Positions 12,804 to 61,429 of a stretch of 64,000 nucleotides of DNA are shown piece by piece. How positions within the stretch are numbered: position 1 is the first letter of the stretch; every line of letters begins with the position of its first letter. The notes beneath the pieces were generated by a model. The model was not told where the DNA came from and searched no databases. It saw nothing but the letters and a program-made list of their open reading frames with translations. A program made the translations under genes and the position numbers. The stretch comes from Leptolyngbyaceae cyanobacterium (GTDB lineage: Bacteria; Cyanobacteriota; Cyanobacteriia; Phormidesmidales; Phormidesmidaceae): positions 640,001 through 704,000 of the forward strand of contig CBDHHL010000032.1 of assembly GCA_965263355.1 (NCBI GenBank), written 5' to 3'.

Positions 12804-13493
12804 ATGGGCCCCACATCCAACGAAACACCTGCCGGTAAAATCCTGATTGTTGACGATCACCAGGTCGTCCTGAGTGGCACCATCGATATCCTGCGTCAAC
12901 ACTACCCAACCTATGACTTATTAACGGCTAAAACAGCCCAGGAAGCGCTTGAGAAATTAGCCAACCATCGACTTGACCTGGCGATTTTAGACCTGTCTAT
13001 TCCTGACGCGTTACACCAGGATGCCAAGGTGGAAACTGGCATTGAGCTACTTAGGCAAGTGATGAAACACTACCCCGAGCAAAACATTGCCATCCAAAGC
13101 ACCTACATCAAGGCTCTAGTTCGAGTTAGATCCGAGATCGACAGCCATCAGGGTGGCTTTACCATCGTCGATAAAAGCATGTCTAGCCAGGACATTTTTC
13201 AGCGCATTGATGGTGCCTTAAAAGGATTTAGCCATACCCGAGGCATTAAAGCACTACAGGCTGGCATCGAACTAAAACCCGAATGGCTACAGGTTCTCAC
13301 CTTTGCGTTTCATGAAGGTCTACAGGACAAAGCCATTGCCCAAGCACTGAGCGTACAACCCAGCACAATTCGCCATTACTGGAATAAACTCTACGACGTG
13401 CTGGAAATAGACCCTGAGCTAGACAAAAAGGAAGGAAAAAATCTGCGTAGCCTAACTGAAATCCGTGCCCGTGAGCGAGGGCTACTGGACTAA
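12804..13493 (+). CDS. NarL/LuxR-type DNA-binding response regulator
   Basis: KILIVDDH, LAILDLSIP (phospho-Asp) and C-terminal HTH GLQDKAIAQALSVQPSTIRHYW; TAATG overlap with the kinase. Confidence 0.9.
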   Translation: MGPTSNETPAGKILIVDDHQVVLSGTIDILRQHYPTYDLLTAKTAQEALEKLANHRLDLAILDLSIPDALHQDAKVETGIELLRQVMKHYPEQNIAIQSTYIKALVRVRSEIDSHQGGFTIVDKSMSSQDIFQRIDGALKGFSHTRGIKALQAGIELKPEWLQVLTFAFHEGLQDKAIAQALSVQPSTIRHYWNKLYDVLEIDPELDKKEGKNLRSLTEIRARERGLLD

Positions 13494-15460
13494 TGGACGC
13501 TGCTGGATTAGTAGAAGAACGGAGTCGCTGGGGAGAACTTTTAGAAAAGCTCAAAACAGGACTCTGGGGGATCGGTATTGTCGCATCCATCATAGGTGCC
13601 CGTTCCTTAGGCGCATTTCATGTTTTGGAACTTATGGCGTTAGATCGCCTATTTGCCACGCAGCTATCCTTTGAAACAGGCGATAAGGCCATCACGATCG
13701 TTGAAATTGGCCCTAACTATGCTGATGGTTCTGAAGAACAGGGCTACACCATTGATGCCACATCGTTGGCAGACGTCTTAGACAATATCTTCAAAAATGA
13801 ACCGGCTGTTGTTGGTGCAGATATCTTGTCTTATCGAATTACAGGAGATATTCAAAATAACCTGCTACCAACTATTGAAAAACATTCCAACCTGATTACA
13901 GTCGAGGGGATTTTAGCTAATCCAGCAGAGCCATTACCGGGTCTCTCTGAAACGCAATTAGCACAGCAAGTTGGATTTAATGACTTGGTTATTGATCAAG
14001 ATGGTACTGTTCGTCGTGCCCTTTTAGATGCCTATAAAAATGAAGAATATAGGACATCCTTTGCTATTCAGGTAATTCAGAGCTACTTCAAACGTGAAAA
14101 CTCCAGTGGTGAACGACTTGAATTGAAAAATGGTACTAAGGATTCAGCCACTATGAGTTTTGGAGAGGTTGAAATTCCAAGAATTAAAGCTGGATATGGA
14201 TATACTAGCGGTGATGTATTTAGTCTCCAAACCCTCATTAACTATCGAGGTCAGGTAAAACCATTTAAAGTTATTAGTGCGACTGATTTACTCACCTCCC
14301 AAAACGATCAAAATGACCTAATTAAAGATAAGGTCGTTATTATCAGCTTGGTAGGTTCACCTCACGACTATAAAATTCCACTAACCGTATTTAATCGTTT
14401 AATAGATAATTCTCAACTAGTTAACGGTGTCGAGATCCAGGCCTACGTTATCAATCAAGTTATTAAAGCAGTAGAAGATCAGCAACCACTTGTTTGGACT
14501 AATCGAACAGTTCAATATATATTCTTGCTATCTTTGTCAATTCTTAGCATTGTTGCTAGCAGATTTTCAAGGGATGTAATTAGTGGCTTTATTCAATTAT
14601 CGATTATTACTTTTTTAAGTATTTTACTTAGCTATATCCTATTGATGCAGATAGGTCTCTGGTTACCTCTGTCAGCTACCCTTGCGGCTGTCACTTCCAA
14701 TGGTCTTATCTACATTAACTATGCTCAAAATGAGCGTCGTTGGACTAGGTTAATAGCTCAACGAAACCTTGCTCTTGAAAAGGAACGCCATCTATCTGAA
14801 AAATTGGCTTTTGAACGGCAAAAAACGATAGAAAATGTATTTGACTCCATTCATAATGGCCCCTTGCAAACCTTAGCTAATTTATTAAGACGTACTCGCG
14901 ATGAGACAATTGGACTATCCGATATTTGTCTAAGCTTAGAGGATCTAAACCGTGAAATTCGCTATATCGGTGACTCTATTAAGCAAGATGCCACGGAGAA
15001 AAAGGAACGTCTTGATGTTAGCTATGCAGGGACTAAATTTGATTTAAATATTCCTCTTCAAGAGCTATTTCAGGAAGTTTATGATGCAATGTTGTCAAGA
15101 CCTTTATTAGGATTTTCAGACCTCAAGTTCACTATCATATCGTTTGAGCCAATTGAGACAGAAATGCTCAATGTTGAAGTTAAGCGTAAACTATGTAGAT
15201 TTCTAGAAGAAGCCCTAGGAAATGTTGGAAAACATGCTGTTGGAGCTACACGGTTAGTGGTGACCGGAAAAACTAAAGACAACTATTATGAGTTAACCGT
15301 AGCTGATAACGGTCCCGGTTTTCCTCATCATGATACTGAAGCTGGTGAAGGCACCCGTATCGGTAAGGAAATTGAAAAATTAACTCGAGGTAAATTTGTA
15401 CGTAGACAAAATGTACCTAAAGGTTTCTTCTGTCAATTAACGTTTCCGATATCAATCTAA
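13493..15460 (+). CDS. CHASE2-domain sensor histidine kinase
   Basis: CHASE2 motifs LELMALD, PAVVGADI, VGFNDLVIDQDGTVRRALL and GVEIQA; about 3 TMs; H-box IHNGPLQ; ATPase motifs EEALGNVGKHA and DNGPG. Confidence 0.88.
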   Translation: MDAAGLVEERSRWGELLEKLKTGLWGIGIVASIIGARSLGAFHVLELMALDRLFATQLSFETGDKAITIVEIGPNYADGSEEQGYTIDATSLADVLDNIFKNEPAVVGADILSYRITGDIQNNLLPTIEKHSNLITVEGILANPAEPLPGLSETQLAQQVGFNDLVIDQDGTVRRALLDAYKNEEYRTSFAIQVIQSYFKRENSSGERLELKNGTKDSATMSFGEVEIPRIKAGYGYTSGDVFSLQTLINYRGQVKPFKVISATDLLTSQNDQNDLIKDKVVIISLVGSPHDYKIPLTVFNRLIDNSQLVNGVEIQAYVINQVIKAVEDQQPLVWTNRTVQYIFLLSLSILSIVASRFSRDVISGFIQLSIITFLSILLSYILLMQIGLWLPLSATLAAVTSNGLIYINYAQNERRWTRLIAQRNLALEKERHLSEKLAFERQKTIENVFDSIHNGPLQTLANLLRRTRDETIGLSDICLSLEDLNREIRYIGDSIKQDATEKKERLDVSYAGTKFDLNIPLQELFQEVYDAMLSRPLLGFSDLKFTIISFEPIETEMLNVEVKRKLCRFLEEALGNVGKHAVGATRLVVTGKTKDNYYELTVADNGPGFPHHDTEAGEGTRIGKEIEKLTRGKFVRRQNVPKGFFCQLTFPISI

Positions 15461-15625
15461 ATCAGTAATAAATCAGACATTTAACCCATCCTTTTATCTC
15501 AAAATAATTATATAAAGGAGTAAGGGAATAAAGACTATTTACTTGTTTTTTTATTCCTAATAAATAGACAATATTTAAGATGTCAGGCAAACATCTATCC
15601 ACGTCAACCTAATAATTTCTAGGAG

Positions 15626-15808
15626 GTGATTAAAACGTCTGCATTAAGCATAACAAAGCGGCTATGGCTCAATTTAGTTATAGCAACATTCATTTCCCTG
15701 CCCATCATTCCTTTGACGGGTATTGCTGCTAACGCTAATTTTGAACCGCAACTACCGCGACCAGATCCTGGCCAGCCTACTGGTAGGACAGGGAGTTCTA
15801 CTCGCTGA
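15626..15808 (+). CDS. Predicted secreted peptide precursor (signal peptide plus 23 aa Pro/Gly-rich peptide ending GSSTR), resembling the DUF928 N-terminal motif
   Basis: Basic n-region, hydrophobic h-region LWLNLVIATFISLPIIPLTGI and A-N-A cleavage site; perfect SD AGGAGGTGAT at 15621-15630; strong terminator directly after. Exact start codon uncertain. Confidence 0.7.
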   Translation: MIKTSALSITKRLWLNLVIATFISLPIIPLTGIAANANFEPQLPRPDPGQPTGRTGSSTR

Positions 15809-15841
15809 ATTTCCTAATTGGAAATGATTTAGATCACATAG

Positions 15842-15877
15842 GCGTGGTGATTTTATGCAAAATCACCACGCTTTTTT
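15842..15877 (+). terminator. Rho-independent terminator after the peptide gene
   Basis: GCGTGGTGATTTT-atgc-AAAATCACCACGC followed by TTTTTT. Confidence 0.9.
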
Positions 15878-16150
15878 AGTAAAGTCAACTGCACTTTGTA
15901 GAAAAGTAGAAAGGCCTTTAAAGAGAAGATGTAGTACGGCTGGAGAAAAGGTAACAGAGAACTGCATAAAAGCAAATTGTTTTGATAAAGAGCCTTAGGT
16001 ATTCTGTAATTGTTCGATAAACATTAGTGATTTGGCTTACTTTTTTGCTTATCTCACTGATTTACATCTGAACCGTTATTACAAGGTCAGATGATTTATG
16101 TCACTGCTGACCGACGACTGCTTCCTTATTGTGATCTTGGAGCTTGTGCA

Positions 16151-16294
16151 ATGCCTTTCCTACCATTTTTCACAGTTTGTCTGGCCTTTTTTCTCTTCTC
16201 CGAAGTTTTGACTCCCAAGCCCCAGTCTAAGCAAAAGGAAACAAAAGATAACGCTACCAAACTGTTAATCGAGTTGAAAAACGCCGATAGTTGA
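16151..16294 (+). CDS. Small single-TM protein (47 aa)
   Basis: MPFLPFFTVCLAFFLFSEVLTPKPQSKQKETK...; GGAG 8 nt upstream of ATG 16151; hydrophobic N-terminus followed by a Lys-rich tail. Confidence 0.5.
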   Translation: MPFLPFFTVCLAFFLFSEVLTPKPQSKQKETKDNATKLLIELKNADS

Positions 16295-16619
16295 TTAACT
16301 CAGCAATTATTTGATTTAAGCACTAACTAACCTAGTTTGAGAGGACTTCACCATGATCGTTCTATCTTCAATGACAGCAATGAGAACACAGCGTCTAGAG
16401 TTATTCGCGACCTTGGTGATGTCCTTGTGGAATAAGCTCAAACAGCAACCAGGGTGTGAAGCGGATTGCTACTAATATCACATATTTATCTAATACGTTT
16501 TTGGTGTTGTTGATTGTAGGGATGACCGCATCTGAAAAGCGTTAACTCATTACTAACGCAACAGATCGCAACATTTTCTGGATCAGCAACGGTATTTCTC
16601 AAGTTTTGCTGTGACAGTC

Positions 16620-16659
16620 AGGGGTAAAGTTCGCTAAAAGGCGGCTTTGCTCCTTTTTC
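16620..16659. terminator. Probable terminator between convergent units
   Basis: AGGGGTAAAGTTCGC...GCGGCTTTGCTCCT stem (with G-U pairs) followed by a T-run. Confidence 0.5.
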
Positions 16660-16673
16660 TTAAGTTTTACAGA

Positions 16674-18011
16674 CTATTGGTTTTGTTCGTCACGGTTAAA
16701 GCGGAGATTGTCGAGGGTTTGTCCCGGCGGGAGATCGACAAACACTCGATCGCCTGGGGTGACACCTTCTAAAATTTGGATTTGCTTTCCTACTTGGGGA
16801 CCTAGGGTGACAGGGCGAAAGCGAATGTTCTTTTCCTTTTTATCGGGGACGAGGACACCGGTTTCTCCGCCTTGGGTGACAACAGCAACAGCAGGCACAA
16901 CAAGGGCATCACTCAGGCGATCACCCAAAAACGCCACGTCTACATTCATATTTGAGCGCAGCTGCTCTAGTCCATTTTCTAGACGCACCCGGACTTGGAA
17001 AATGGTGACATTTTGACGTTCAATGGCTTCTGGAGCAATTAAACGCACGGTTCCTTTGAATATTATTTCAGGATAGGTTGGCGATATAATCTCTACGGAT
17101 TGACCTACCTGAATCTGTCCTAAGTCAGCTTCGGGTACCTCGGCAATAACCTCTAACCCATCGGCAATGGCAACAATGGCACTGGAGGTAGCTGAGGCTG
17201 CTTCTGAAGCGGACGTAGTCGGGGTGACAAAGGCTCCAACTGTGGCAAATTTTTGGGTTACAACTCCCCCAAATGGTGCACGGATAATTGTATTGTCAAT
17301 ACGGGTTTGAATAGCCGAAATTTGTCCCCGTGCCCGCTCAACACGGGCACGAGCCTGGACGACATCTTCTGGATCTGGGTCATCTGCCAAATCTGCCAGG
17401 CGTTGCTGGGCCTCGACAACGCGTGCTTCTAGTTGTTTGACATTGGCTTGGGCACTATCAACAGCATTTTCGCTGTTGTCGAGTTCACGGGCAGAAATCG
17501 CTCCTTGGCGATAGAGATTGAGATCGCGTTCTAAATCTCCTTCCACCAGACCCAATCGTGCCTCAGCCTCTACCAGTTGCGATCGCACCGCCGCCAAATT
17601 GGCCTGGGACTGGGCTAACTGCGGTTGCTCTGCCCCCTGCAACAAATCCTGCAGTTGAGCCTCGGCTTCCGCTAAATTCGCTTGGTTTTGTTGCAGCTGA
17701 GCATCGAGATCATCAATATCCATGCGAGCAACCACCTGACCTTGCTCGACTACATCCCCCTGTTCGACCAACAGTTCATCCACAATGCCTGAATTTTTAG
17801 GACTCAGGTTGACTATCCTAAACGCTTCTACCTCACCACTGGCATTGATGCGAATCGTTACTTCCGTTGACTCTACTGGCACTGTCAACGCGGTCACATC
17901 GTAGTTGTTGCTGCGGTAACGTCGCACGGCAATTGCACTGATGCCGATAATTGCGATCGCAACACCGCCCATAATCCACAGCAGAGACCGCTGTTTATAA
18001 ACCCATTTCAC
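16674..18011 (-). CDS. Efflux transporter periplasmic adaptor subunit (HlyD/MFP family)
   Basis: N-terminal TM, lipoyl half-motifs (GIVDELLVEQGDVVEQGQVVA, IRAPFGGVV), long coiled-coil hairpin, ALVVPAVAV. Confidence 0.92.
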   Translation of the reverse strand: MKWVYKQRSLLWIMGGVAIAIIGISAIAVRRYRSNNYDVTALTVPVESTEVTIRINASGEVEAFRIVNLSPKNSGIVDELLVEQGDVVEQGQVVARMDIDDLDAQLQQNQANLAEAEAQLQDLLQGAEQPQLAQSQANLAAVRSQLVEAEARLGLVEGDLERDLNLYRQGAISARELDNSENAVDSAQANVKQLEARVVEAQQRLADLADDPDPEDVVQARARVERARGQISAIQTRIDNTIIRAPFGGVVTQKFATVGAFVTPTTSASEAASATSSAIVAIADGLEVIAEVPEADLGQIQVGQSVEIISPTYPEIIFKGTVRLIAPEAIERQNVTIFQVRVRLENGLEQLRSNMNVDVAFLGDRLSDALVVPAVAVVTQGGETGVLVPDKKEKNIRFRPVTLGPQVGKQIQILEGVTPGDRVFVDLPPGQTLDNLRFNRDEQNQ

Positions 18012-56075: not shown

Positions 56076-58667
56076 ATGATGATGCAGAAATGGTTAAATC
56101 AGCTGCTCAAACAAACCTTTATGGGGCAAAAGCTACTGAAATGGTGGCTATACTCTGTGATGATTTGTCTGCTAATTATTCTAACTAGACCTAGTTTGGC
56201 AATCCAAACACCGCCAGATTTGCTGCCAGATTCACTTTTGAGCTACGGCCATCAAGCCTATGCATCAGGCCAATTCCACTTAGCAAGACAGCAGTGGCAA
56301 CAGGCGGCCCATCACTATAGCCAGCAACAAAAACCGGCTGAAACCGCATTGAGCCTAAGCTATTTAGCGCTTTCTTACCAGGAATTGGGACAATGGCAAA
56401 AGGCCAAGCAAACTATTGAGCAAAGTTTAGCGCTATTAGAAGCCCATGGACCAGCACCTAAGATCCAGGCCCATGTGCTTAATACCTATGGCAATATTCA
56501 ACTTGCTTTGGGACAACCAGAAGCTGCCCTAGCTACATGGCAAGAAGCCACCACCTACTATCAACAACTTGAAGATCAGGTAGGTCAGCTAGGCAGTCAA
56601 TTAAATCAGGCCCAGGCCATGCAGACCCTAGGGTTTTATCGCCGTGCCAAAACCTTATTGGATGAGCTGACAATCCAAGTTAATCAGCAGTCTGACTCAC
56701 TACTAAAAGCGACAACACTACGTAGTTTAGGCAACTTACTTCAGATAACAGGTAGTCTTGAGCAAGCTCAGACCCTGCTCGAACAAAGTTTAGCAATTAC
56801 TAAAACCCTAAACCAACCAGCGGAAACAAGTAAAACCCTCTTTGCCTTAGCCAATAACTTCAGAGCCCGTCATCAACCGGAGCAAGCTTTGGAGATTTAC
56901 CAACAGTTGATCGTTCTCACAGACAGTCCTCCAGATCGGCTTGAGACTCAACTTAATTTGTTAAGTCTACTGGTGGAATTACAACGATGGGAAGTTGTTC
57001 AACCGCTATTGACTGAATTGAGTCAGCAGTTACCCGATTTACAAGCTAGCCGACCTGCCATTTACAGTCGGGTAAATTTTGCTGAAAGTGCACTTAAATT
57101 TAATCAGGAACGCCCCAATGAAATACCAGCTATTTCTATCCATCATTTAGCCGAGCTGTTAGCTCAAGGAGCGCAGCAGGCACACGCATTACATGACTCG
57201 CGGGCTGAGTCCCTAGCATTGGGTCAACTGGGCAAGTTATATATAACAACCCAACAGTGGCATAATGCGACTGATGTCACACAAAAGGCAATTCACCTGG
57301 CAAAACGTAGCCATGCTCGAGATATTAGCTATCGTTGGCAGTGGCAGTTAGGCGACATCTATCAGCAAAAACAACAGCCACAGCATGCGATCGCAACCTA
57401 TACCGAAGCTGTTGACACCCTTTCCTCCGTACGCGCAGATCTATTAGCGACTAATTCTGAACTCCAGTTCAGCATCAAAGAAAAAGTTGAACCACTCTAC
57501 CGTGATTTAGTCGGTCTGCTATTAAAGCCAGAAGTCCCTGATCAAAAAGCGTTAATACAAGCTCGTAATCTGATTGAAGATCTACAGCTAGTCGAATTAG
57601 AAAACTATTTTCGGTCTGCATGCATTGACACCCAAGCCAAACAAGTTGATCAAATTGATCCACATGCCGCAGTTATTTATCCCATCATTCTGTCAGATCG
57701 GCTAGAAATTGTTCTAGCATTACCCAACCAACCACTCAGCCACTATCGCACCGAAATACCCGATACTGAACTCGAAAATACCCTCAATCAGTTTTTTATT
57801 GCCTTTAATCCAGCTTTGTCCAATCAACGACGGCTGCAACTCTCAAAACAACTATACGACTGGTTAATTCAACCAGCTGCTGCTGAGTTAGCGCAGCATA
57901 ATATCAAAACCCTGGTATTCGTGCTGGATGGCAAACTAAGAAATATTCCCATGGCAGCCCTCTACGATGGCGAAAAATATCTAATAGAAACCTACAGCGT
58001 TGCGTTGACCCCTGGCTTAGAACTAATGGGTCCTCATTTTCACCAGCCCAAACCCCTAGAGGCTCTGATCCTGGGGGTCAGCGAACCACGCCAAGGATTT
58101 TCTCCCCTCCCAGGTGTAAAAGATGAGATTGAAAAAATTGCCGCCAATGTCGAACAAGCCCAGGTATATATCAATCAAGCATTCACTAAACAAACCTTTA
58201 AAGATCAACTCAAAGCCACTCCCTATCCCATTCTGCATCTTGCCACTCACGGCCAATTCAGCTCAGAGCTAGCTAGTACTTTTTTACTAGCCTGGGATGA
58301 AACCATCACCTTAGAAGATTTAGACACCCTCTTAACAGATCGGCGACTGCAGAACAACAATCCGATTGAGCTAATGGTTTTGAGTGCTTGTCAAACTGCC
58401 GAGGGAGATGATCGAGCTACCTTAGGATTAGCGGGTATGGCAATCAAGTCTGGAGCCCGTAGCACCCTAGCGACCTTATGGTCAGTCAATGATAAATCTA
58501 CAGTCCAACTGATCAACTATTTTTATGACGCTCTAAGCAATACAGAGGTCTCAACCACCAAAGCCGAAGCTCTTCGTCAAGCACAAATTTCCCTAATTAA
58601 AAACAAACACTATTCACATCCATTCTATTGGGCTCCCTTTGTACTGATTGGGAATTGGCTAACTTAA
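56076..58667 (+). CDS. TPR-repeat plus CHAT (caspase-like, clan CD) protease with predicted signal peptide
   Basis: Many TPR-like helices; catalytic His in HLATHG (H725) and Cys in LSACQTA (C772); GARSTLATLWSV and HPFYWAPFVLIGNW; N-terminal KWWLYSVMICLLIILTRPSLA. Confidence 0.92.
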   Translation: MMMQKWLNQLLKQTFMGQKLLKWWLYSVMICLLIILTRPSLAIQTPPDLLPDSLLSYGHQAYASGQFHLARQQWQQAAHHYSQQQKPAETALSLSYLALSYQELGQWQKAKQTIEQSLALLEAHGPAPKIQAHVLNTYGNIQLALGQPEAALATWQEATTYYQQLEDQVGQLGSQLNQAQAMQTLGFYRRAKTLLDELTIQVNQQSDSLLKATTLRSLGNLLQITGSLEQAQTLLEQSLAITKTLNQPAETSKTLFALANNFRARHQPEQALEIYQQLIVLTDSPPDRLETQLNLLSLLVELQRWEVVQPLLTELSQQLPDLQASRPAIYSRVNFAESALKFNQERPNEIPAISIHHLAELLAQGAQQAHALHDSRAESLALGQLGKLYITTQQWHNATDVTQKAIHLAKRSHARDISYRWQWQLGDIYQQKQQPQHAIATYTEAVDTLSSVRADLLATNSELQFSIKEKVEPLYRDLVGLLLKPEVPDQKALIQARNLIEDLQLVELENYFRSACIDTQAKQVDQIDPHAAVIYPIILSDRLEIVLALPNQPLSHYRTEIPDTELENTLNQFFIAFNPALSNQRRLQLSKQLYDWLIQPAAAELAQHNIKTLVFVLDGKLRNIPMAALYDGEKYLIETYSVALTPGLELMGPHFHQPKPLEALILGVSEPRQGFSPLPGVKDEIEKIAANVEQAQVYINQAFTKQTFKDQLKATPYPILHLATHGQFSSELASTFLLAWDETITLEDLDTLLTDRRLQNNNPIELMVLSACQTAEGDDRATLGLAGMAIKSGARSTLATLWSVNDKSTVQLINYFYDALSNTEVSTTKAEALRQAQISLIKNKHYSHPFYWAPFVLIGNWLT

Positions 58668-58905: not shown

Positions 58906-59625
58906 ATGATTAGACTTATGGTGCGACATTACATAACAACTGGCATCGCAATATCGGCGATTTTATTGAGCTGTGGCACTGCTATGGCCGAAATTTCAAC
59001 AGAAAATCTAAATGCTACGTCATTACCAACGAATGACTGGTCTTTCTGGCCAACGGATGACGATAAAGCACCCAACAATACGGTCAGCGGCGCATCTCGA
59101 GGGAGTTGTTCCAACGACCAAGTAATTGCCCTATTACCCAGTTCTCAATATGGGCTTACCAGCAAATCTCATCCTGAGATATTAGTAGCTACCACCTCAG
59201 TGGATACAACGGATCAAGCACTTTTTAGCATGCAATCAGCAGACGGTTACTACTACGAAACCTATATTGAATTACCAGATACCCCAGGCATCATCAATAT
59301 TGCACTACCGAGTGAGGCTCCGGCCTTAGATGTTAATCAGCTCTACCAATGGTCATTAGTCTTGATGTGTAATAACCAATTAAGACCTGACAGCCCTGCA
59401 ATACAGGGATGGATCCAGACACAACCAATCAACAGTAACATCACCACACCTTCTATAGAACAGGCCATCGAGTATCGAGAAGCTCATTTGTGGTATGACA
59501 TGGTTGCATTATTGGCAGAACTACGACGACAAGAACCAACAAATCAAGCTGTTTATGAAGCTTGGCAAGGCGTTTTAGCTGGCCTTGAACTGATGGCTGT
59601 AGTGTATGAGCCGATTATTAAATAG
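58906..59625 (+). CDS. DUF928 domain protein with predicted signal peptide
   Basis: SGASRGSC, ALLP...GLTSKSHP, PGIINIALP, LYQWSLVLMC, QGWIQ, LWYD and W..VL...EL; typical position between CHAT and CHASE2 genes. Confidence 0.85.
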   Translation: MIRLMVRHYITTGIAISAILLSCGTAMAEISTENLNATSLPTNDWSFWPTDDDKAPNNTVSGASRGSCSNDQVIALLPSSQYGLTSKSHPEILVATTSVDTTDQALFSMQSADGYYYETYIELPDTPGIINIALPSEAPALDVNQLYQWSLVLMCNNQLRPDSPAIQGWIQTQPINSNITTPSIEQAIEYREAHLWYDMVALLAELRRQEPTNQAVYEAWQGVLAGLELMAVVYEPIIK

Positions 59626-59683
59626 CTGCTCTCTTGGCTGTGGGGGGCATGCTAAAAGAAACTCTTTGGCATCAAAATTGGGT

Positions 59684-61429
59684 ATGTTGCGATTGGGATG
59701 GCAAATTCGCCAACTAGGAGGAATTCTAGCCGTTTCATGTGGTATTTCAACACTAGTGATAGCTATTAGCATCACAGGAATATTGCAACCCTTAGAATGG
59801 TTTGCATTCGACCGTCTACTACAGCAGAAGGCCGCTGATACGCTTGATTCACGTTTCTTGATCGTCACCATCGGAGAGGAAGATCTGAGAAACCTTGGTG
59901 AATGGCCAATTTCTGATGGCAAAATGGCCAGTATGCTGCAAGAACTGCAGCGCCATCAACCTCGGGTCATCGGTATAGATATTTATCGAGATCTACCCGT
60001 TGGCACCGGACGTGAGCAGCTTAAAGCGGCCTTTCAAACTATTCCTAATATCGTTGGAGTAGAAAAGGTCATTGGTGAACCGGTACCACCACCGCCTGAA
60101 CTTGATCCACACCATCAAGTCGGCATGACTGATTTAGTTGCTGATGCTGACGGACGCATCAGACGAGGTTTATTGGCCATCCAATGCGATAAAGAACAAC
60201 AGCTGTGTAATGAAAACGAACATCAACAAATCAAATATGGATTAGCCACGAAGTTGGCTTTGATCTATTTAGAATCTGAACAGATTTATCCCCAGACAAT
60301 AGACAAAGACCGTTTACGACTGGGGCAAGCTATCTTGAAACGCTTAGCTGCTAATGATGGTGGTTATGCCAATGTGGATGCAGAGAGCACTCAAATTCTA
60401 ATCAACTATCCGGCAGGTCAATTATTTTTTGAGACCGTAACGTTTTCACAGGTCCTTAATGGAGAGGTATCTACCCACAAAATCCAGGATAAAGTCGTTC
60501 TGATTGGCGCAACAGCAGTTAGCCTAAATGACTTGCTATATACTCCCATGAGTTTGGAGGAACGCCTGCCGGGTGTATTTATCCATGCACATATTGCCAG
60601 CCAATTAATTGGCAGTGCCCTTAATGAACGTAGGCCCTTAAACGGAGCTTCTCCATGGGTTAAAAGCTTGTGGATTCTGCTATCAACCAACCTGGCTGTT
60701 ATCTTAGTGTCTTGGATTACAAACAAAGGAGGCCTATATCGACAAAAGAGTCTATTCTCCCTGGCATTTATCATGCCATGTGTATGGTCTGGAGTAATTG
60801 GGGTTACCTACGGCTTTTTGCTTATGGGCCTATGGTTACCCATAGCAGCATCCCTACTATCGATTTCTTCTTCTTCAATCCTATTGTTACTTCGACAAAA
60901 CCAGCAGCTCCATGGCTTAGCCTCTATCGATGGCCTCACTCGCATTGCGAATCGTCGTTCCTTCGACCATTACCTGCAACAATGCATTTATCTCCAAGAA
61001 AAACTAGCCCTCGTGCTCTGTGATGTAGATTATTTCAAACGTTATAACGATACCTACGGTCATCAAGAAGGGGATAAATGCCTGAGATTAGTAGCTAAAA
61101 CCCTAGAGCAAGGGGTACGACGCAGTGATTTTGTTGCTCGCTATGGTGGAGAAGAATTTGTGATTGTGTTACCAAATACAGAGACCTCCATGGCCTATGG
61201 AATTTTAGAGCGAGTTCAAAAACAGATAGCCAATTTGGAAATTGCCCATACAGCTTCGGAGGTTAGTGATTATGTGACCTTGAGCTTTGGTCTGGTGACT
61301 GTGGATAACCTGAAAGGTATTTCAGCCAAAGCCATCATTGAATGGGCTGATCACGCTTTATATCAAGCTAAAAAACTGGGACGCAACCGGGTTTCTGCAA
61401 CTATCTTTCCTCAAGATAGCTCACTTTAG
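59684..61429 (+). CDS. CHASE2-GGDEF diguanylate cyclase (start uncertain, 59606 or 59684)
   Basis: CHASE2 motifs LEWFAFD, PRVIGIDIYRDLP, DADGRIRR and PGVFIHA; 3 TMs; DGLTRIANRR, DVDYFKRYNDTYGH, RxxD I-site RRSD and GGEEF. Confidence 0.92.
   Translation: MLRLGWQIRQLGGILAVSCGISTLVIAISITGILQPLEWFAFDRLLQQKAADTLDSRFLIVTIGEEDLRNLGEWPISDGKMASMLQELQRHQPRVIGIDIYRDLPVGTGREQLKAAFQTIPNIVGVEKVIGEPVPPPPELDPHHQVGMTDLVADADGRIRRGLLAIQCDKEQQLCNENEHQQIKYGLATKLALIYLESEQIYPQTIDKDRLRLGQAILKRLAANDGGYANVDAESTQILINYPAGQLFFETVTFSQVLNGEVSTHKIQDKVVLIGATAVSLNDLLYTPMSLEERLPGVFIHAHIASQLIGSALNERRPLNGASPWVKSLWILLSTNLAVILVSWITNKGGLYRQKSLFSLAFIMPCVWSGVIGVTYGFLLMGLWLPIAASLLSISSSSILLLLRQNQQLHGLASIDGLTRIANRRSFDHYLQQCIYLQEKLALVLCDVDYFKRYNDTYGHQEGDKCLRLVAKTLEQGVRRSDFVARYGGEEFVIVLPNTETSMAYGILERVQKQIANLEIAHTASEVSDYVTLSFGLVTVDNLKGISAKAIIEWADHALYQAKKLGRNRVSATIFPQDSSL

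Follow-up and report, generated by a model that had tools for sequence, protein, structure and literature searches.

The window, which is the whole 64-kb stretch of DNA analysed, contains a cassette of three genes. A response regulator gene (12804-13493, forward strand) is followed by the gene for a CHASE2 sensor histidine kinase (13493-15460, forward strand), which it overlaps in the sequence TAATG such that the stop codon TAA (13491-13493) has one base in common with the ATG at 13493, and then by a small open reading frame (ORF). The coupled pair and the 60-codon ORF reported in the first-pass annotation were all found in place. The regulator was matched by Pfam Response_reg (E = 2.7e-12) and comprises a receiver domain and a NarL/UhpA-like C-terminal part, with full-length matches in NCBIfam to the MadR, ErdR and UhpA types, all under the cut-off. 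Its identity is 89-95% across 15 orthologous loci, a range from which L013 was left out because the gene ends at the contig edge. The kinase was matched by Pfam CHASE2 (E = 1.9e-37; residues 30-352) and HATPase_c (residues 564-637), and partially by UhpB, NarX and MctS in NCBIfam. With hydrophobic stretches read off the sequence, it has the layout of CHASE2 sensors (PF05226), i.e. an N-terminal membrane segment, CHASE2, more membrane segments and an output domain, the ectodomain lying at approximately residues 43-345 and being followed by transmembrane segments (approximately 345-415) and a NarX/UhpB-like kinase core. Kinase orthologues (n = 16) are 62-77% identical, and the gene order regulator-kinase-peptide is kept in 17 of 17 loci.

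The small gene and its flanking signals

As probably translated, the small ORF spans 15635-15808 (forward strand), which corresponds to 57 codons from a conserved ACG plus the stop codon; read mechanically from a GTG, the ORF spans 15626-15808 and 60 codons. At 16 of 16 orthologous loci, and also in the more distant genomes L082 and L085, the gene lies 130-174 nt 3' of that for the kinase; it accompanies its CHASE2 kinase, always as a short gene, in 19 of 19 loci. A search of 150 genomes of the order gave 15 strong matches, in which the gene is single-copy per genome, and three weak matches (L083, L084 and L086) that were set aside as noise. The dN/dS values of 0.04-0.37 indicate purifying selection; in the mature part there are 5 changes between L010 and L011, synonymous without exception, and between L002 and L003 there are 10 synonymous and 3 non-synonymous ones. 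The small ORF (15626-15808) is a real gene and a conserved one.

An extended Shine-Dalgarno sequence, AGGAGGTGAT (15621-15630, forward strand), which we take to be complementary to the 3' end of 16S rRNA, is kept in 17 of 17 loci and occurs once in the 64-kb window against 0.15 occurrences expected by chance. The first-pass annotation had placed a perfect Shine-Dalgarno sequence at a GTG start, of which the former was upheld and the latter was not, the true start probably being the conserved ACG. The GTG is unlikely as a start because it overlaps the Shine-Dalgarno sequence, and initiation most likely occurs at 15635 because this fourth codon is conserved (ACG in 14 of 17 loci, ATG in 2 and ATA in 1, with an invariant third base) and because, at the distant locus L082, a spacer 2 nt shorter puts the GTG out of frame with the ACG still in frame. 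The sequence of the mature peptide is unaffected by the choice of start codon.

Between the stop codon and the terminator lies a box, GAAATGATTTAGATCACA (15821-15838, forward strand), near-invariant in 12-13 orthologues, with no structural covariation among the orthologues compared. The strong terminator previously ascribed to the peptide gene itself (15840-15879, forward strand) consists of a hairpin (15840-15873) with a stem of 15 pairs, 6 of them G-C, followed by a T-run, and its stem covaries, with compensatory changes at 7 of 14 pairs in 12 orthologues. Rfam gave no match at E <= 1 over 15400-16700; a promoter scan gave 10 promoter-like sites against 11.1 expected, and no promoter was assigned.

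Pfam assigned no family at E <= 0.01 to the 60-residue ORF. A word-indexed protein search using the peptide alone gave nothing at near lengths, and a search of longer proteins with the peptide alignment gave no match, which is weak evidence by the nature of this search. A single-sequence phmmer search of 1.84 billion proteins gave eight matches, with no DUF928 among them; six are family members of 54-106 residues and two (P0002 and P0005) are long proteins aligned solely on the hydrophobic part of the query, P0005 being repetitive. No description of such a CHASE2-linked peptide gene was found in the literature searched.

Residues 1-37 of the 60-codon numbering (15626-15736, forward strand) have the features of a signal peptide, with a K/R n-region, a hydrophobic core of 18 residues and, at the end, the A35-N36-A37 site noted earlier, in which both Ala residues are invariant across 17 sequences. 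From these features we infer export of the precursor and cleavage after A-N-A. The predicted mature peptide, NFEPQLPRPDPGQPTGRTGSSTR (23 residues; 15737-15805, forward strand), would be a free-standing DUF928-type tail. The family consensus is [FY]xP..PPD.G(Q)...R.GS[ST]R, and the C-termini of the 17 aligned peptides read RTGSSTR, RAGSTR, RFGSSR and similar. The terminal Arg, central to the first-pass proposal, is present in 15 of 19 loci, the remaining four ending in H, Y, S and Y; an essential role for it is not supported.

Kinase regulation by small membrane proteins is well established, and the hydrophobic segment is conserved like the mature tail (mean pairwise identity 61% and 49%, respectively), so that an uncleaved signal might be considered, with a small membrane-anchored protein modulating the kinase via transmembrane contacts in an MgrB/PhoQ-like manner and the periplasmic tail being secondary. 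However, the A-x-A site does not vary, selection on the periplasmic tail is purifying, and this tail looks like that of a soluble protein. DUF928 proteins are soluble and exported and have their tail at, or close to, the N-terminus of the mature chain; membrane anchoring is therefore judged very unlikely.

Likeness to the DUF928 tail

A full-length DUF928 protein is encoded in the window at 58906-59625 (forward strand; Pfam DUF928, E = 7e-43). On its 5' side lies a gene for an exported TPR-CHAT protease (56076-58667; CHAT, E = 1.1e-67), the N-terminus of which contains a hydrophobic, signal-like segment, and on its 3' side a gene for a CHASE2-GGDEF receptor (59606-61429; CHASE2, E = 5e-60; GGDEF, E = 8e-50). 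DUF928 proteins usually partner CHASE2 sensors in genomes; DUF928 is found at most 6 kb from CHASE2 for 65 of 76 matches in five related genomes and for 35 of 50 in five diverse genomes. The only apparent mention of DUF928 in the literature searched is, judging by its title, a survey of prokaryotic WD40 proteins. In the AlphaFold2 model of the window's DUF928, the chain is unstructured through R65 (pLDDT block means 47-65), and the ordered core begins just after this residue; the core is modelled as a beta-sandwich with three helices, its best PDB match being a carbohydrate-binding module (8wae, E = 6e-5).

The tail module of this protein, WSFWPTDDDKAPNNTVSGASR (residues 45-65; 59038-59100, forward strand), aligns with the peptide in register. 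A pattern common to the DUF928 tails of 19 paralogues, [FY]xP..G.P..R..GG[ST]R, has its last residue at Pfam position 6, and among these tails FIPPEDSGQPRTNRAGGRR (L017, L022 and L026) comes closest to the F.P.PPDSGQP...R.GS.R of the peptides. Against the tail profile the peptide is matched along the full 22 positions, and the final Arg of both the peptide and the window's DUF928 falls on the last one, which reproduces the in-register match of the first-pass annotation. When the profile was built from the 19 DUF928 tails only and run over 9150 six-frame segments, three peptides were in the top five, behind the window's own DUF928, with E-values of 0.066, 0.083 and 2.4, the last being that of the window's peptide. 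The full-length DUF928 profile matches 16 of 17 small ORFs at signal-peptide and tail positions (E = 0.08-49). Conversely, a peptide profile searched against 30 DUF928 paralogues had its best match in the N-terminal tail in 21, elsewhere in 7 and nowhere in 2, all scores being weak, and a profile of peptides and DUF928 N-termini used in the word-indexed protein search found solely a partial DUF928 (P0010). The similarity is short, Pro/Gly/Ser-rich and individually non-significant (E = 0.066 to 2.4); the match between peptide and tail is above chance as a pattern and weak as a score.

The peptide ORF falls below the DUF928 (PF06051) gathering score of 26 bits, against 147 bits for the window's true DUF928, and has no folded core (conserved Cys, beta-sandwich and helices) after the Arg. 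Four DUF928 paralogues have 3-5 tandem tails, which argues that the tail is a separable unit. Sequence comparison thus supports the peptide as a stand-alone copy of the DUF928 N-terminal tail that would end where the DUF928 fold starts, and the AlphaFold2 model agrees with the earlier statement that the peptide stops at the Arg beyond which DUF928 continues into its fold.

Since the ORF resembles the first part of DUF928 only, it could in principle be the remains of a truncated DUF928 gene, now without function, as the first-pass annotation had considered, but the data contradict this reading and leave it scarcely credible. No core-like sequence was found 3' of the stop in any frame at 17 loci, so the ORF is no recent DUF928 pseudogene; moreover, the same stop position class recurs in 19 genomes despite kinases only 62-77% identical, dN/dS is well below 1, and the Shine-Dalgarno sequence, start context and terminator are all conserved.

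Predicted docking and alternative readings

Co-folding of the CHASE2 ectodomain with peptide residues 31-60 gave a score of 0.67 (runs 0.61-0.73), this being the model's own confidence for a 30-residue partner that includes 7 signal-peptide residues, whereas the best of three controls, which include no scrambled or non-cognate tail, gave 0.00. In a benchmark, 116 of 157 solved complexes attained this mark, as did 2 of 215 mismatched pairs, a calibration that is rough here as custom alignments were used. At least 89% of contacts are common to the runs, with a partner pLDDT of at least 64, and the peptide residues touching the ectodomain are 38-43, 45-46, 48, 50 and 52-60. The peptide is therefore predicted to dock on the CHASE2 ectodomain. 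The ectodomain itself was modelled using AlphaFold2 with a mean pLDDT of 59 and a pTM of 0.68; Foldseek found no match in the PDB at E <= 0.001 and no fold was assigned. A view of CHASE2 as a caspase-like pseudo-protease was likewise unsupported by the Foldseek search of the PDB. We know of no solved CHASE2 complex.

Residues conserved to at least 90% number 17 among the 46 in contact and 57 among the 257 others (Fisher p = 0.028). The contact residues form a general CHASE2 signature and are equally conserved in 30 CHASE2 domains without a nearby partner gene; pocket conservation therefore does not single out peptide-binding sensors, and the pocket residues tested gave no distinction between partnered and orphan CHASE2 domains.

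On balance we lean, somewhat more than evenly, towards the reading that a Sec-exported DUF928-tail peptide of ~23 residues docks on the CHASE2 ectodomain of the upstream kinase and sets kinase activity. The precursor would be exported by the Sec system and cut after A-N-A by signal peptidase I, freeing the ~23-residue peptide into the periplasm, where it would act within the producing cell or filament. Its C-terminal G-S-S/T-R would be placed against the family-wide conserved kinase residues D110, N163-D164-L165, D168, G312 and Q316, and its variable middle against variable ectodomain residues; docking would set the activity of the kinase towards the NarL-type regulator, and the peptide would replace the DUF928 partner in this CHASE2 kinase family. 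Actual binding, any effect on the kinase and the direction of that effect are inferred. The original proposal of the peptide as ligand of the adjacent kinase has gained the co-fold result and the linkage in 19 of 19 loci, binding itself standing as a model prediction.

Pairwise identity averages 57% in the ectodomain and 81% in the cytoplasmic part of the kinase. Divergence of the ectodomain and of the mature peptide is much more rapid than that of the cytoplasmic half and of the regulator. In a partial Mantel test of peptide against ectodomain distance, with the cytoplasmic part controlled, r was 0.42, a value reached by 1 of 5001 permutations in a test known to be liberal for related sequences; the reverse test, of peptide against cytoplasmic part, was also positive (r = 0.27).

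Fast and joint divergence of peptide and ectodomain, as in pherotype systems, would also suit a diffusible quorum signal that leaves the cell and reports density to other filaments in the style of Com or Agr, as would the position of the peptide gene beside a kinase-regulator pair and a conserved intergenic region 5' of it that could carry its own promoter. However, the conserved neighbourhood contains no gene for an exporter, a maturation enzyme or an outer-membrane channel: the neighbours of the locus encode an RMMBL hydrolase, a lone HlyD-type adaptor, a 231-residue protein, an ABC1 kinase and an ARC6-like division protein, and neither a C39-ABC exporter nor an AgrB-like maturation/export gene is among them. 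Furthermore, at ~2.3 kDa the peptide should be too large for the porins of a diderm cell. Such a signal is considered quite unlikely, and the quorum-sensing-like circuit suggested at first pass, with no dedicated export or processing gene nearby, was left unsupported.

The tail might instead be a recognition tag for common periplasmic processing, sorting or anchoring machinery, such as an Arg-directed CHAT protease, in which case nearness to CHASE2 genes would reflect a common pathway and not direct contact. In keeping with this, the motif is short with a basic residue last, the window's DUF928 adjoins the exported TPR-CHAT protease, and the tandem tails, each ending in S-R, resemble a multi-site precursor. 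On the other hand, no CHAT gene was found in the stretches read at the peptide locus or at loci of CHASE2-GGDEF mini-genes, a stand-alone tag without cargo has no obvious use, and the co-fold puts the tail on CHASE2 with controls at 0.00. A tag function is accordingly regarded as unlikely, and docking on CHASE2 remains the preferred reading.

A second, unrelated mini-gene family, ending in GSGTR-stop, was found 3' of CHASE2-GGDEF genes; both families adjoin CHASE2 genes without a DUF928 neighbour. Rows L123, L125 and L128 were taken in a wrong overlapping frame and carry no information on how the peptide ends. The anticipated recurrence of small ORFs beside CHASE2 was thus seen in this additional family but in few loci, as a mini-ORF is present in 3 of 52 other CHASE2 loci without a nearby DUF928 and those three are mutually orthologous. 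A strict regular expression and two profiles run over 20 DUF928-less CHASE2 loci (genomes G001 and G004) found no mini-gene, and general enrichment of mini-ORFs beside CHASE2 is modest.

More broadly, it is possible, though doubtful, that the [FY]xP...GG[ST]R tail serves cyanobacterial CHASE2 sensors in general as their genetically encoded ligand. DUF928 would then be a pro-ligand whose carbohydrate-binding-module-like core governs presentation of the tail or, alternatively, its release by exported CHAT proteases cutting after Arg, and the free-standing peptides of the first family and the GSGTR family would be ready-made ligands in lineage-specific peptide-receptor pairs. As filamentous cyanobacteria have one common periplasm, such peptides could signal from cell to cell within a filament.

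Comparison with known systems

CHASE2 was defined in 2003. Its ligands are still stated as unknown in the accessible part of a 2023 paper (PMC10581220). The locus provides a testable candidate for what CHASE2 sensors bind: because the question is reduced to a synthesisable 23-residue peptide and one ectodomain, binding, specificity and kinase response are directly measurable, and because the predicted contact surface is conserved throughout CHASE2, the result should extend to many cyanobacterial CHASE2 cyclases, diguanylate cyclases and kinases. If true, the proposal would add a case in which a two-component system of a diderm bacterium is fed by a peptide that the cell encodes itself and exports through Sec.

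The only studied CHASE2 pathway found in the literature searched, as far as the accessible part of its source goes, is that of the Sinorhizobium meliloti cyclases CyaD1, CyaD2 and CyaK, in which the stimulus is the plant ribosomal protein uL2 acting via outer-membrane NsrA, i.e. a foreign signal, and the output is cAMP (PMC13001267). There too the signal is of protein nature, and the same part of that source mentions neither a self-encoded peptide nor DUF928 (PMC13001267). In heterocyst-forming cyanobacteria, according to the accessible part of a further source, PatX/PatS is a small protein that carries a Sec-type signal peptide and has to enter the periplasm; the active piece of PatX is a short Gly/Ser/Thr-rich C-terminal part ending in Arg, HRGTGR, and the peptide is processed by the peptidase PatP and acts on cytoplasmic HetR (PMC12756182). 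The present peptide resembles PatX/PatS, as described there, in a short Gly/Ser/Thr-rich end in Arg; its precursor has a signal-like N-terminus with an invariant A-x-A, and its export is predicted. However, by inspection RG[ST]GR is present in 0 of 17 peptides, and the partner gene here encodes a CHASE2 kinase and not HetR.

In the Gram-positive ComC/ComDE and AgrD/AgrCA systems, a small precursor gene lies beside the genes for a receptor kinase and a regulator; export depends on a dedicated protein, ABC or AgrB, and the sensor is polytopic in the membrane. The present small precursor gene likewise lies beside a presumed receptor kinase and a regulator, and peptide and sensor part likewise diverge faster than the rest of the cassette, but here there is a Sec signal, no dedicated exporter nearby, a periplasmic CHASE2 sensor and a cell with an outer membrane. 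MgrB and SafA, which act on PhoQ, are uncleaved membrane proteins not known to be encoded in a conserved cassette with the kinase; they are unrelated in sequence to the peptide and resemble it in that a tiny self-encoded protein tunes a sensor kinase from the envelope side, as is proposed here. Compared with the DUF928 (PF06051) proteins encoded beside CHASE2, the peptide is without the whole folded core and any Pfam match but ends on the same Arg as their tail, and both carry a Sec signal peptide followed by [FY]xP..G.P..GG[ST]R and are encoded next to the gene for a CHASE2 sensor.

The regulator-kinase-peptide gene cassette

The cassette begins with a response regulator gene (12804-13493; Response_reg, E 2.7e-12), which overlaps through a TAATG the gene of a CHASE2 histidine kinase (13493-15460; CHASE2 E 1.9e-37, HATPase_c), NCBIfam returning only sub-threshold matches, of the NarL/UhpA type for the regulator and of the NarX/UhpB type for the kinase. 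A spacer of 165 nt separates the kinase gene from a small ORF of 60 codons (15626-15808), which matched no Pfam or NCBIfam family and is followed by a hairpin of 15 pairs with a T-run (15840-15873). The kinase was used as the query against representative genomes, yielding 16 loci with kinase identities of 62-77% from marine Leptolyngbyaceae, among them Leptothoe sp. PORK10 BA2, Adonisia turfae, Leptolyngbya sp. PCC 7375, Leptolyngbya sp. Heron Island J and several MAGs. The regulator precedes the kinase in all 16 (the copy in locus L013 being cut by the contig end), and the small ORF is present in every one, 130-174 nt 3' of the kinase gene.

The small ORF is a real gene. Values of dN/dS were 0.04-0.37 across it and were low in the mature part as well, and compensatory changes were found at 7 of the 14 pairs of the terminator stem (covariation). 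When 150 genomes from the order were searched in six frames, the peptide gene gave 15 strong matches, each in a different genome, and two more distant matches (loci L082 and L085), both directly behind an orthologous kinase gene. Against 1.84 billion representatives, exhaustive phmmer searching identified only six annotated relatives, with lengths of 54-106 residues.

Translation probably starts at a non-AUG codon, the ACG at 15635-15637, because this codon is conserved, the GTG of the small ORF overlaps the Shine-Dalgarno (SD) sequence and the GTG of L082 is out of frame. The ACG lies 8 nt after AGGAGG, behind a perfect SD of 10-11 nt; the sequence AGGAGGTGAT at 15621-15630 occurs in a single copy in the 64-kb window. 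Among 17 loci this fourth codon reads ACG in 14, ATG in two (L010, L011) and ATA in one (L015); as a Thr codon it never departs from G in the third base, while nearby Thr codons vary. With the spacer of L082 2 nt shorter, the ACG and a subsequent TTG remain in frame. The choice of start codon leaves the mature peptide unchanged. Behind its basic n-region, the N-terminus has a hydrophobic core and an A-x-A motif, both Ala residues of which are invariant across 17 sequences; the precursor would thus be exported and cleaved, leaving predicted peptides of 21-27 residues, in the window NFEPQLPRPDPGQPTGRTGSSTR.

Several conserved elements were noted downstream. Between the peptide stop codon and the terminator lies a box, GAAATGATTTAGATCACA (15821-15838), which is a palindrome, TGATTTAAATCA, in most orthologues, shows no sign of structural covariation and could serve as a binding site for a protein. 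A conserved non-coding block behind the terminator (15880-16010), with neither an Rfam match nor covariation, holds the inverted repeat CTTTGTA-N6-TACAAAG (15894-15913, one arm degenerate) and could function as operator or promoter for the next small gene. The latter is a conserved 47-codon ORF (16151-16294, +; MPFLPFF...) with one hydrophobic segment, a Lys-rich tail (KPKKKEKKD..IEL in relatives) and no Pfam or NCBIfam match; it was identified by eye in 13 of the 14 loci reaching that far (missing in L010) and also in L082, and by tblastn in 9 of 16 loci. An HlyD-type adaptor gene (16674-18011, -), with no adjoining ABC or permease gene in the window, is conserved at about 80% identity in 14 of 16 loci, where it faces the cassette in convergent orientation.

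Likeness of the peptide to the DUF928 tail

The sole DUF928 protein of the window (58906-59625) is encoded within a TPR-CHAT / DUF928 / CHASE2-GGDEF row. Comparison with five related genomes, with 11-21 DUF928 matches in each, identified N-termini consisting of a signal peptide and a tail, [FY]xP[PTQ]..[DR]G.P..R..GG[ST]R, whose last Arg corresponds to position 6 of the DUF928 Pfam model; G.C and then the core come after it. The subfamily FIPPEDSGQPRTNRAGGRR (L017, L022, L026) is nearest to the F.P.PPDSGQP...R.GS.R of the peptides. In four paralogues (L030, L034, L037 and L038, from genomes G004, G001, G005 and G002, respectively) three to five tandem tails, with units reading ..GGGSRIGFTPPPEN..GGSR.., precede the core, an arrangement that resembles either a precursor with several copies or an arm for multivalent docking.

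An AlphaFold2 model of the window DUF928 protein (mean pLDDT 84, pTM 0.81) bears out the claim of the first-pass annotation that the peptide stops where the DUF928 fold begins, since the first 40 modelled residues, up to R65, are predicted to lack secondary structure (block pLDDT 47-65) and the ordered core starts immediately after R65. The core was modelled as a beta-sandwich with a three-helix bundle; its nearest PDB match was 8wae, a porphyran-binding carbohydrate-binding module (E 6e-5), with CARDB, fn3 and the Wzt carbohydrate-binding domain next in rank, and the 8wae match is, as judged from the model, a generic fold likeness.

In statistical terms, the sequence likeness between peptide and tail is that of a short motif. 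With a profile made from 19 DUF928 tails and none of the peptides, E values were 0.066 for L004, 0.083 for L005 and 2.4 for the window peptide (9150 segments). In the opposite direction, the peptide profile had its best match within the tail region for 21 of 30 DUF928 paralogues, ending exactly on the Arg in five. A full-length DUF928 profile matched 16 of 17 small ORFs at signal and tail positions (E 0.08-49); this profile included one CHASE2-DUF928 fusion frame, which accounts for its CHASE2 matches. The same profile matched nothing downstream of the 17 small ORFs, and therefore no DUF928 core remnant, of the kind that a recent truncation would leave, follows the stop codon.

DUF928 and small ORFs beside CHASE2 genes

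In the five related genomes a DUF928 match lies within 6 kb of 65 of 122 CHASE2 matches, and a CHASE2 match within 6 kb of 65 of 76 DUF928 matches; the corresponding counts in five diverse cyanobacterial genomes, most of them a single contig, were 34/66 and 35/50. The kinase family studied here consists of CHASE2 genes lacking a DUF928 neighbour. Tail profiles were used to scan 52 other such loci, of which the 20 from G001 and G004 contained no mini-gene, while three matches came from the 32 loci of the diverse genomes. These three are orthologous CHASE2-GGDEF genes, each followed by a same-strand small ORF ending in ..Y.PPNYG.PDS..GSGTR-stop (SSGTM in one). Members of this family (L098:3055-3315, -; L117:2922-3158, -; L102:7392-7613, +; also L119-L130) would be small exported-type proteins of about 75-90 residues, encoded directly behind the CHASE2-GGDEF genes. 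Strong matches numbered 11 among 121 sampled cyanobacterial genomes; among the 12 loci displayed, seven end in G-[ST]-G-T-R-stop (three rows being uninformative owing to a wrong frame) and nine have an upstream same-strand ORF with a GGDEF motif. Given this second family, tails encoded on their own beside CHASE2 genes arose on at least two occasions, but they are not the rule. The expectation of mini-genes beside other CHASE2 genes thus held to the extent that a second family exists, but only 3 of the 52 DUF928-less loci, orthologous to one another, carried one.

Two further arrangements were observed. A single frame at L042 (G005:C278:9122-11263), interrupted by the contig end, combines a CHASE2 domain and membrane segments with a hydrophobic stretch of signal-like character and an entire DUF928, tail included, and may be a natural CHASE2-DUF928 fusion. 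The TPR-CHAT protease beside the window DUF928 gene (56076-58667) has a hydrophobic, signal-like N-terminal segment, ..WWLYSVMICLLIILTRPSLA, and is therefore probably exported into the compartment that DUF928 and CHASE2 occupy.

Predicted docking of the peptide on the CHASE2 ectodomain

The ectodomain, taken as kinase residues 43-345 with an 18-row alignment, was co-folded with peptide residues 31-60, for which the alignment had 16 rows; the score was 0.67 (runs 0.61-0.73), the best of three controls scoring 0.00. This score is the model's own confidence and not a measurement. Of 157 solved complexes 116 scored as high, as did 2 of 215 mismatched pairs, a calibration that is rough here since the alignments were self-made. 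At least 89% of contacts agreed between runs, with a partner pLDDT of at least 64. Nearly the whole mature peptide is placed in contact with the ectodomain, most tightly through T55-S58 against ectodomain residues 121-125, 68 and 270-274 (N163-D164-L165, D110, G312 and Q316 in kinase numbering). Conservation of at least 90% was found for 17 of 46 contact residues versus 57 of 257 others (p 0.028); the contact residues represent a general CHASE2 signature, equally conserved in CHASE2 domains with no partner gene nearby.

Divergence was unevenly distributed over the cassette: the response regulators are 89-95% identical to the window copy, and mean pairwise identity was 81% for the cytoplasmic half of the kinase, 61% for the signal peptide, 57% for the ectodomain and 49% for the mature peptide. 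Peptide distances track ectodomain distances when the cytoplasmic part is controlled for (partial Mantel r 0.42); as the reverse partial test gave a positive value too (r 0.27) and related sequences make the test liberal, this correlation is suggestive only.

The best reading is that a periplasmic peptide would dock on the adjacent CHASE2 sensor, replacing the DUF928 partner in this kinase family. The quorum-sensing-like circuit proposed in the first-pass annotation, with the peptide as a signal, agrees with the gene order but lacks any support beyond it: no exporter or maturation gene lies near the cassette, and an outer membrane surrounds the cell. In the open literature searched, no peptide ligand or partner protein of CHASE2 was found, and the sole mention of DUF928 was, by title, in a survey of prokaryotic WD40 proteins. 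Published work states that CHASE2 ligands are unknown (PMC10581220), reports that CHASE2 cyclases of S. meliloti respond to the plant protein uL2 via NsrA (PMC13001267) and shows that PatX is exported and processed to HRGTGR (PMC12756182).
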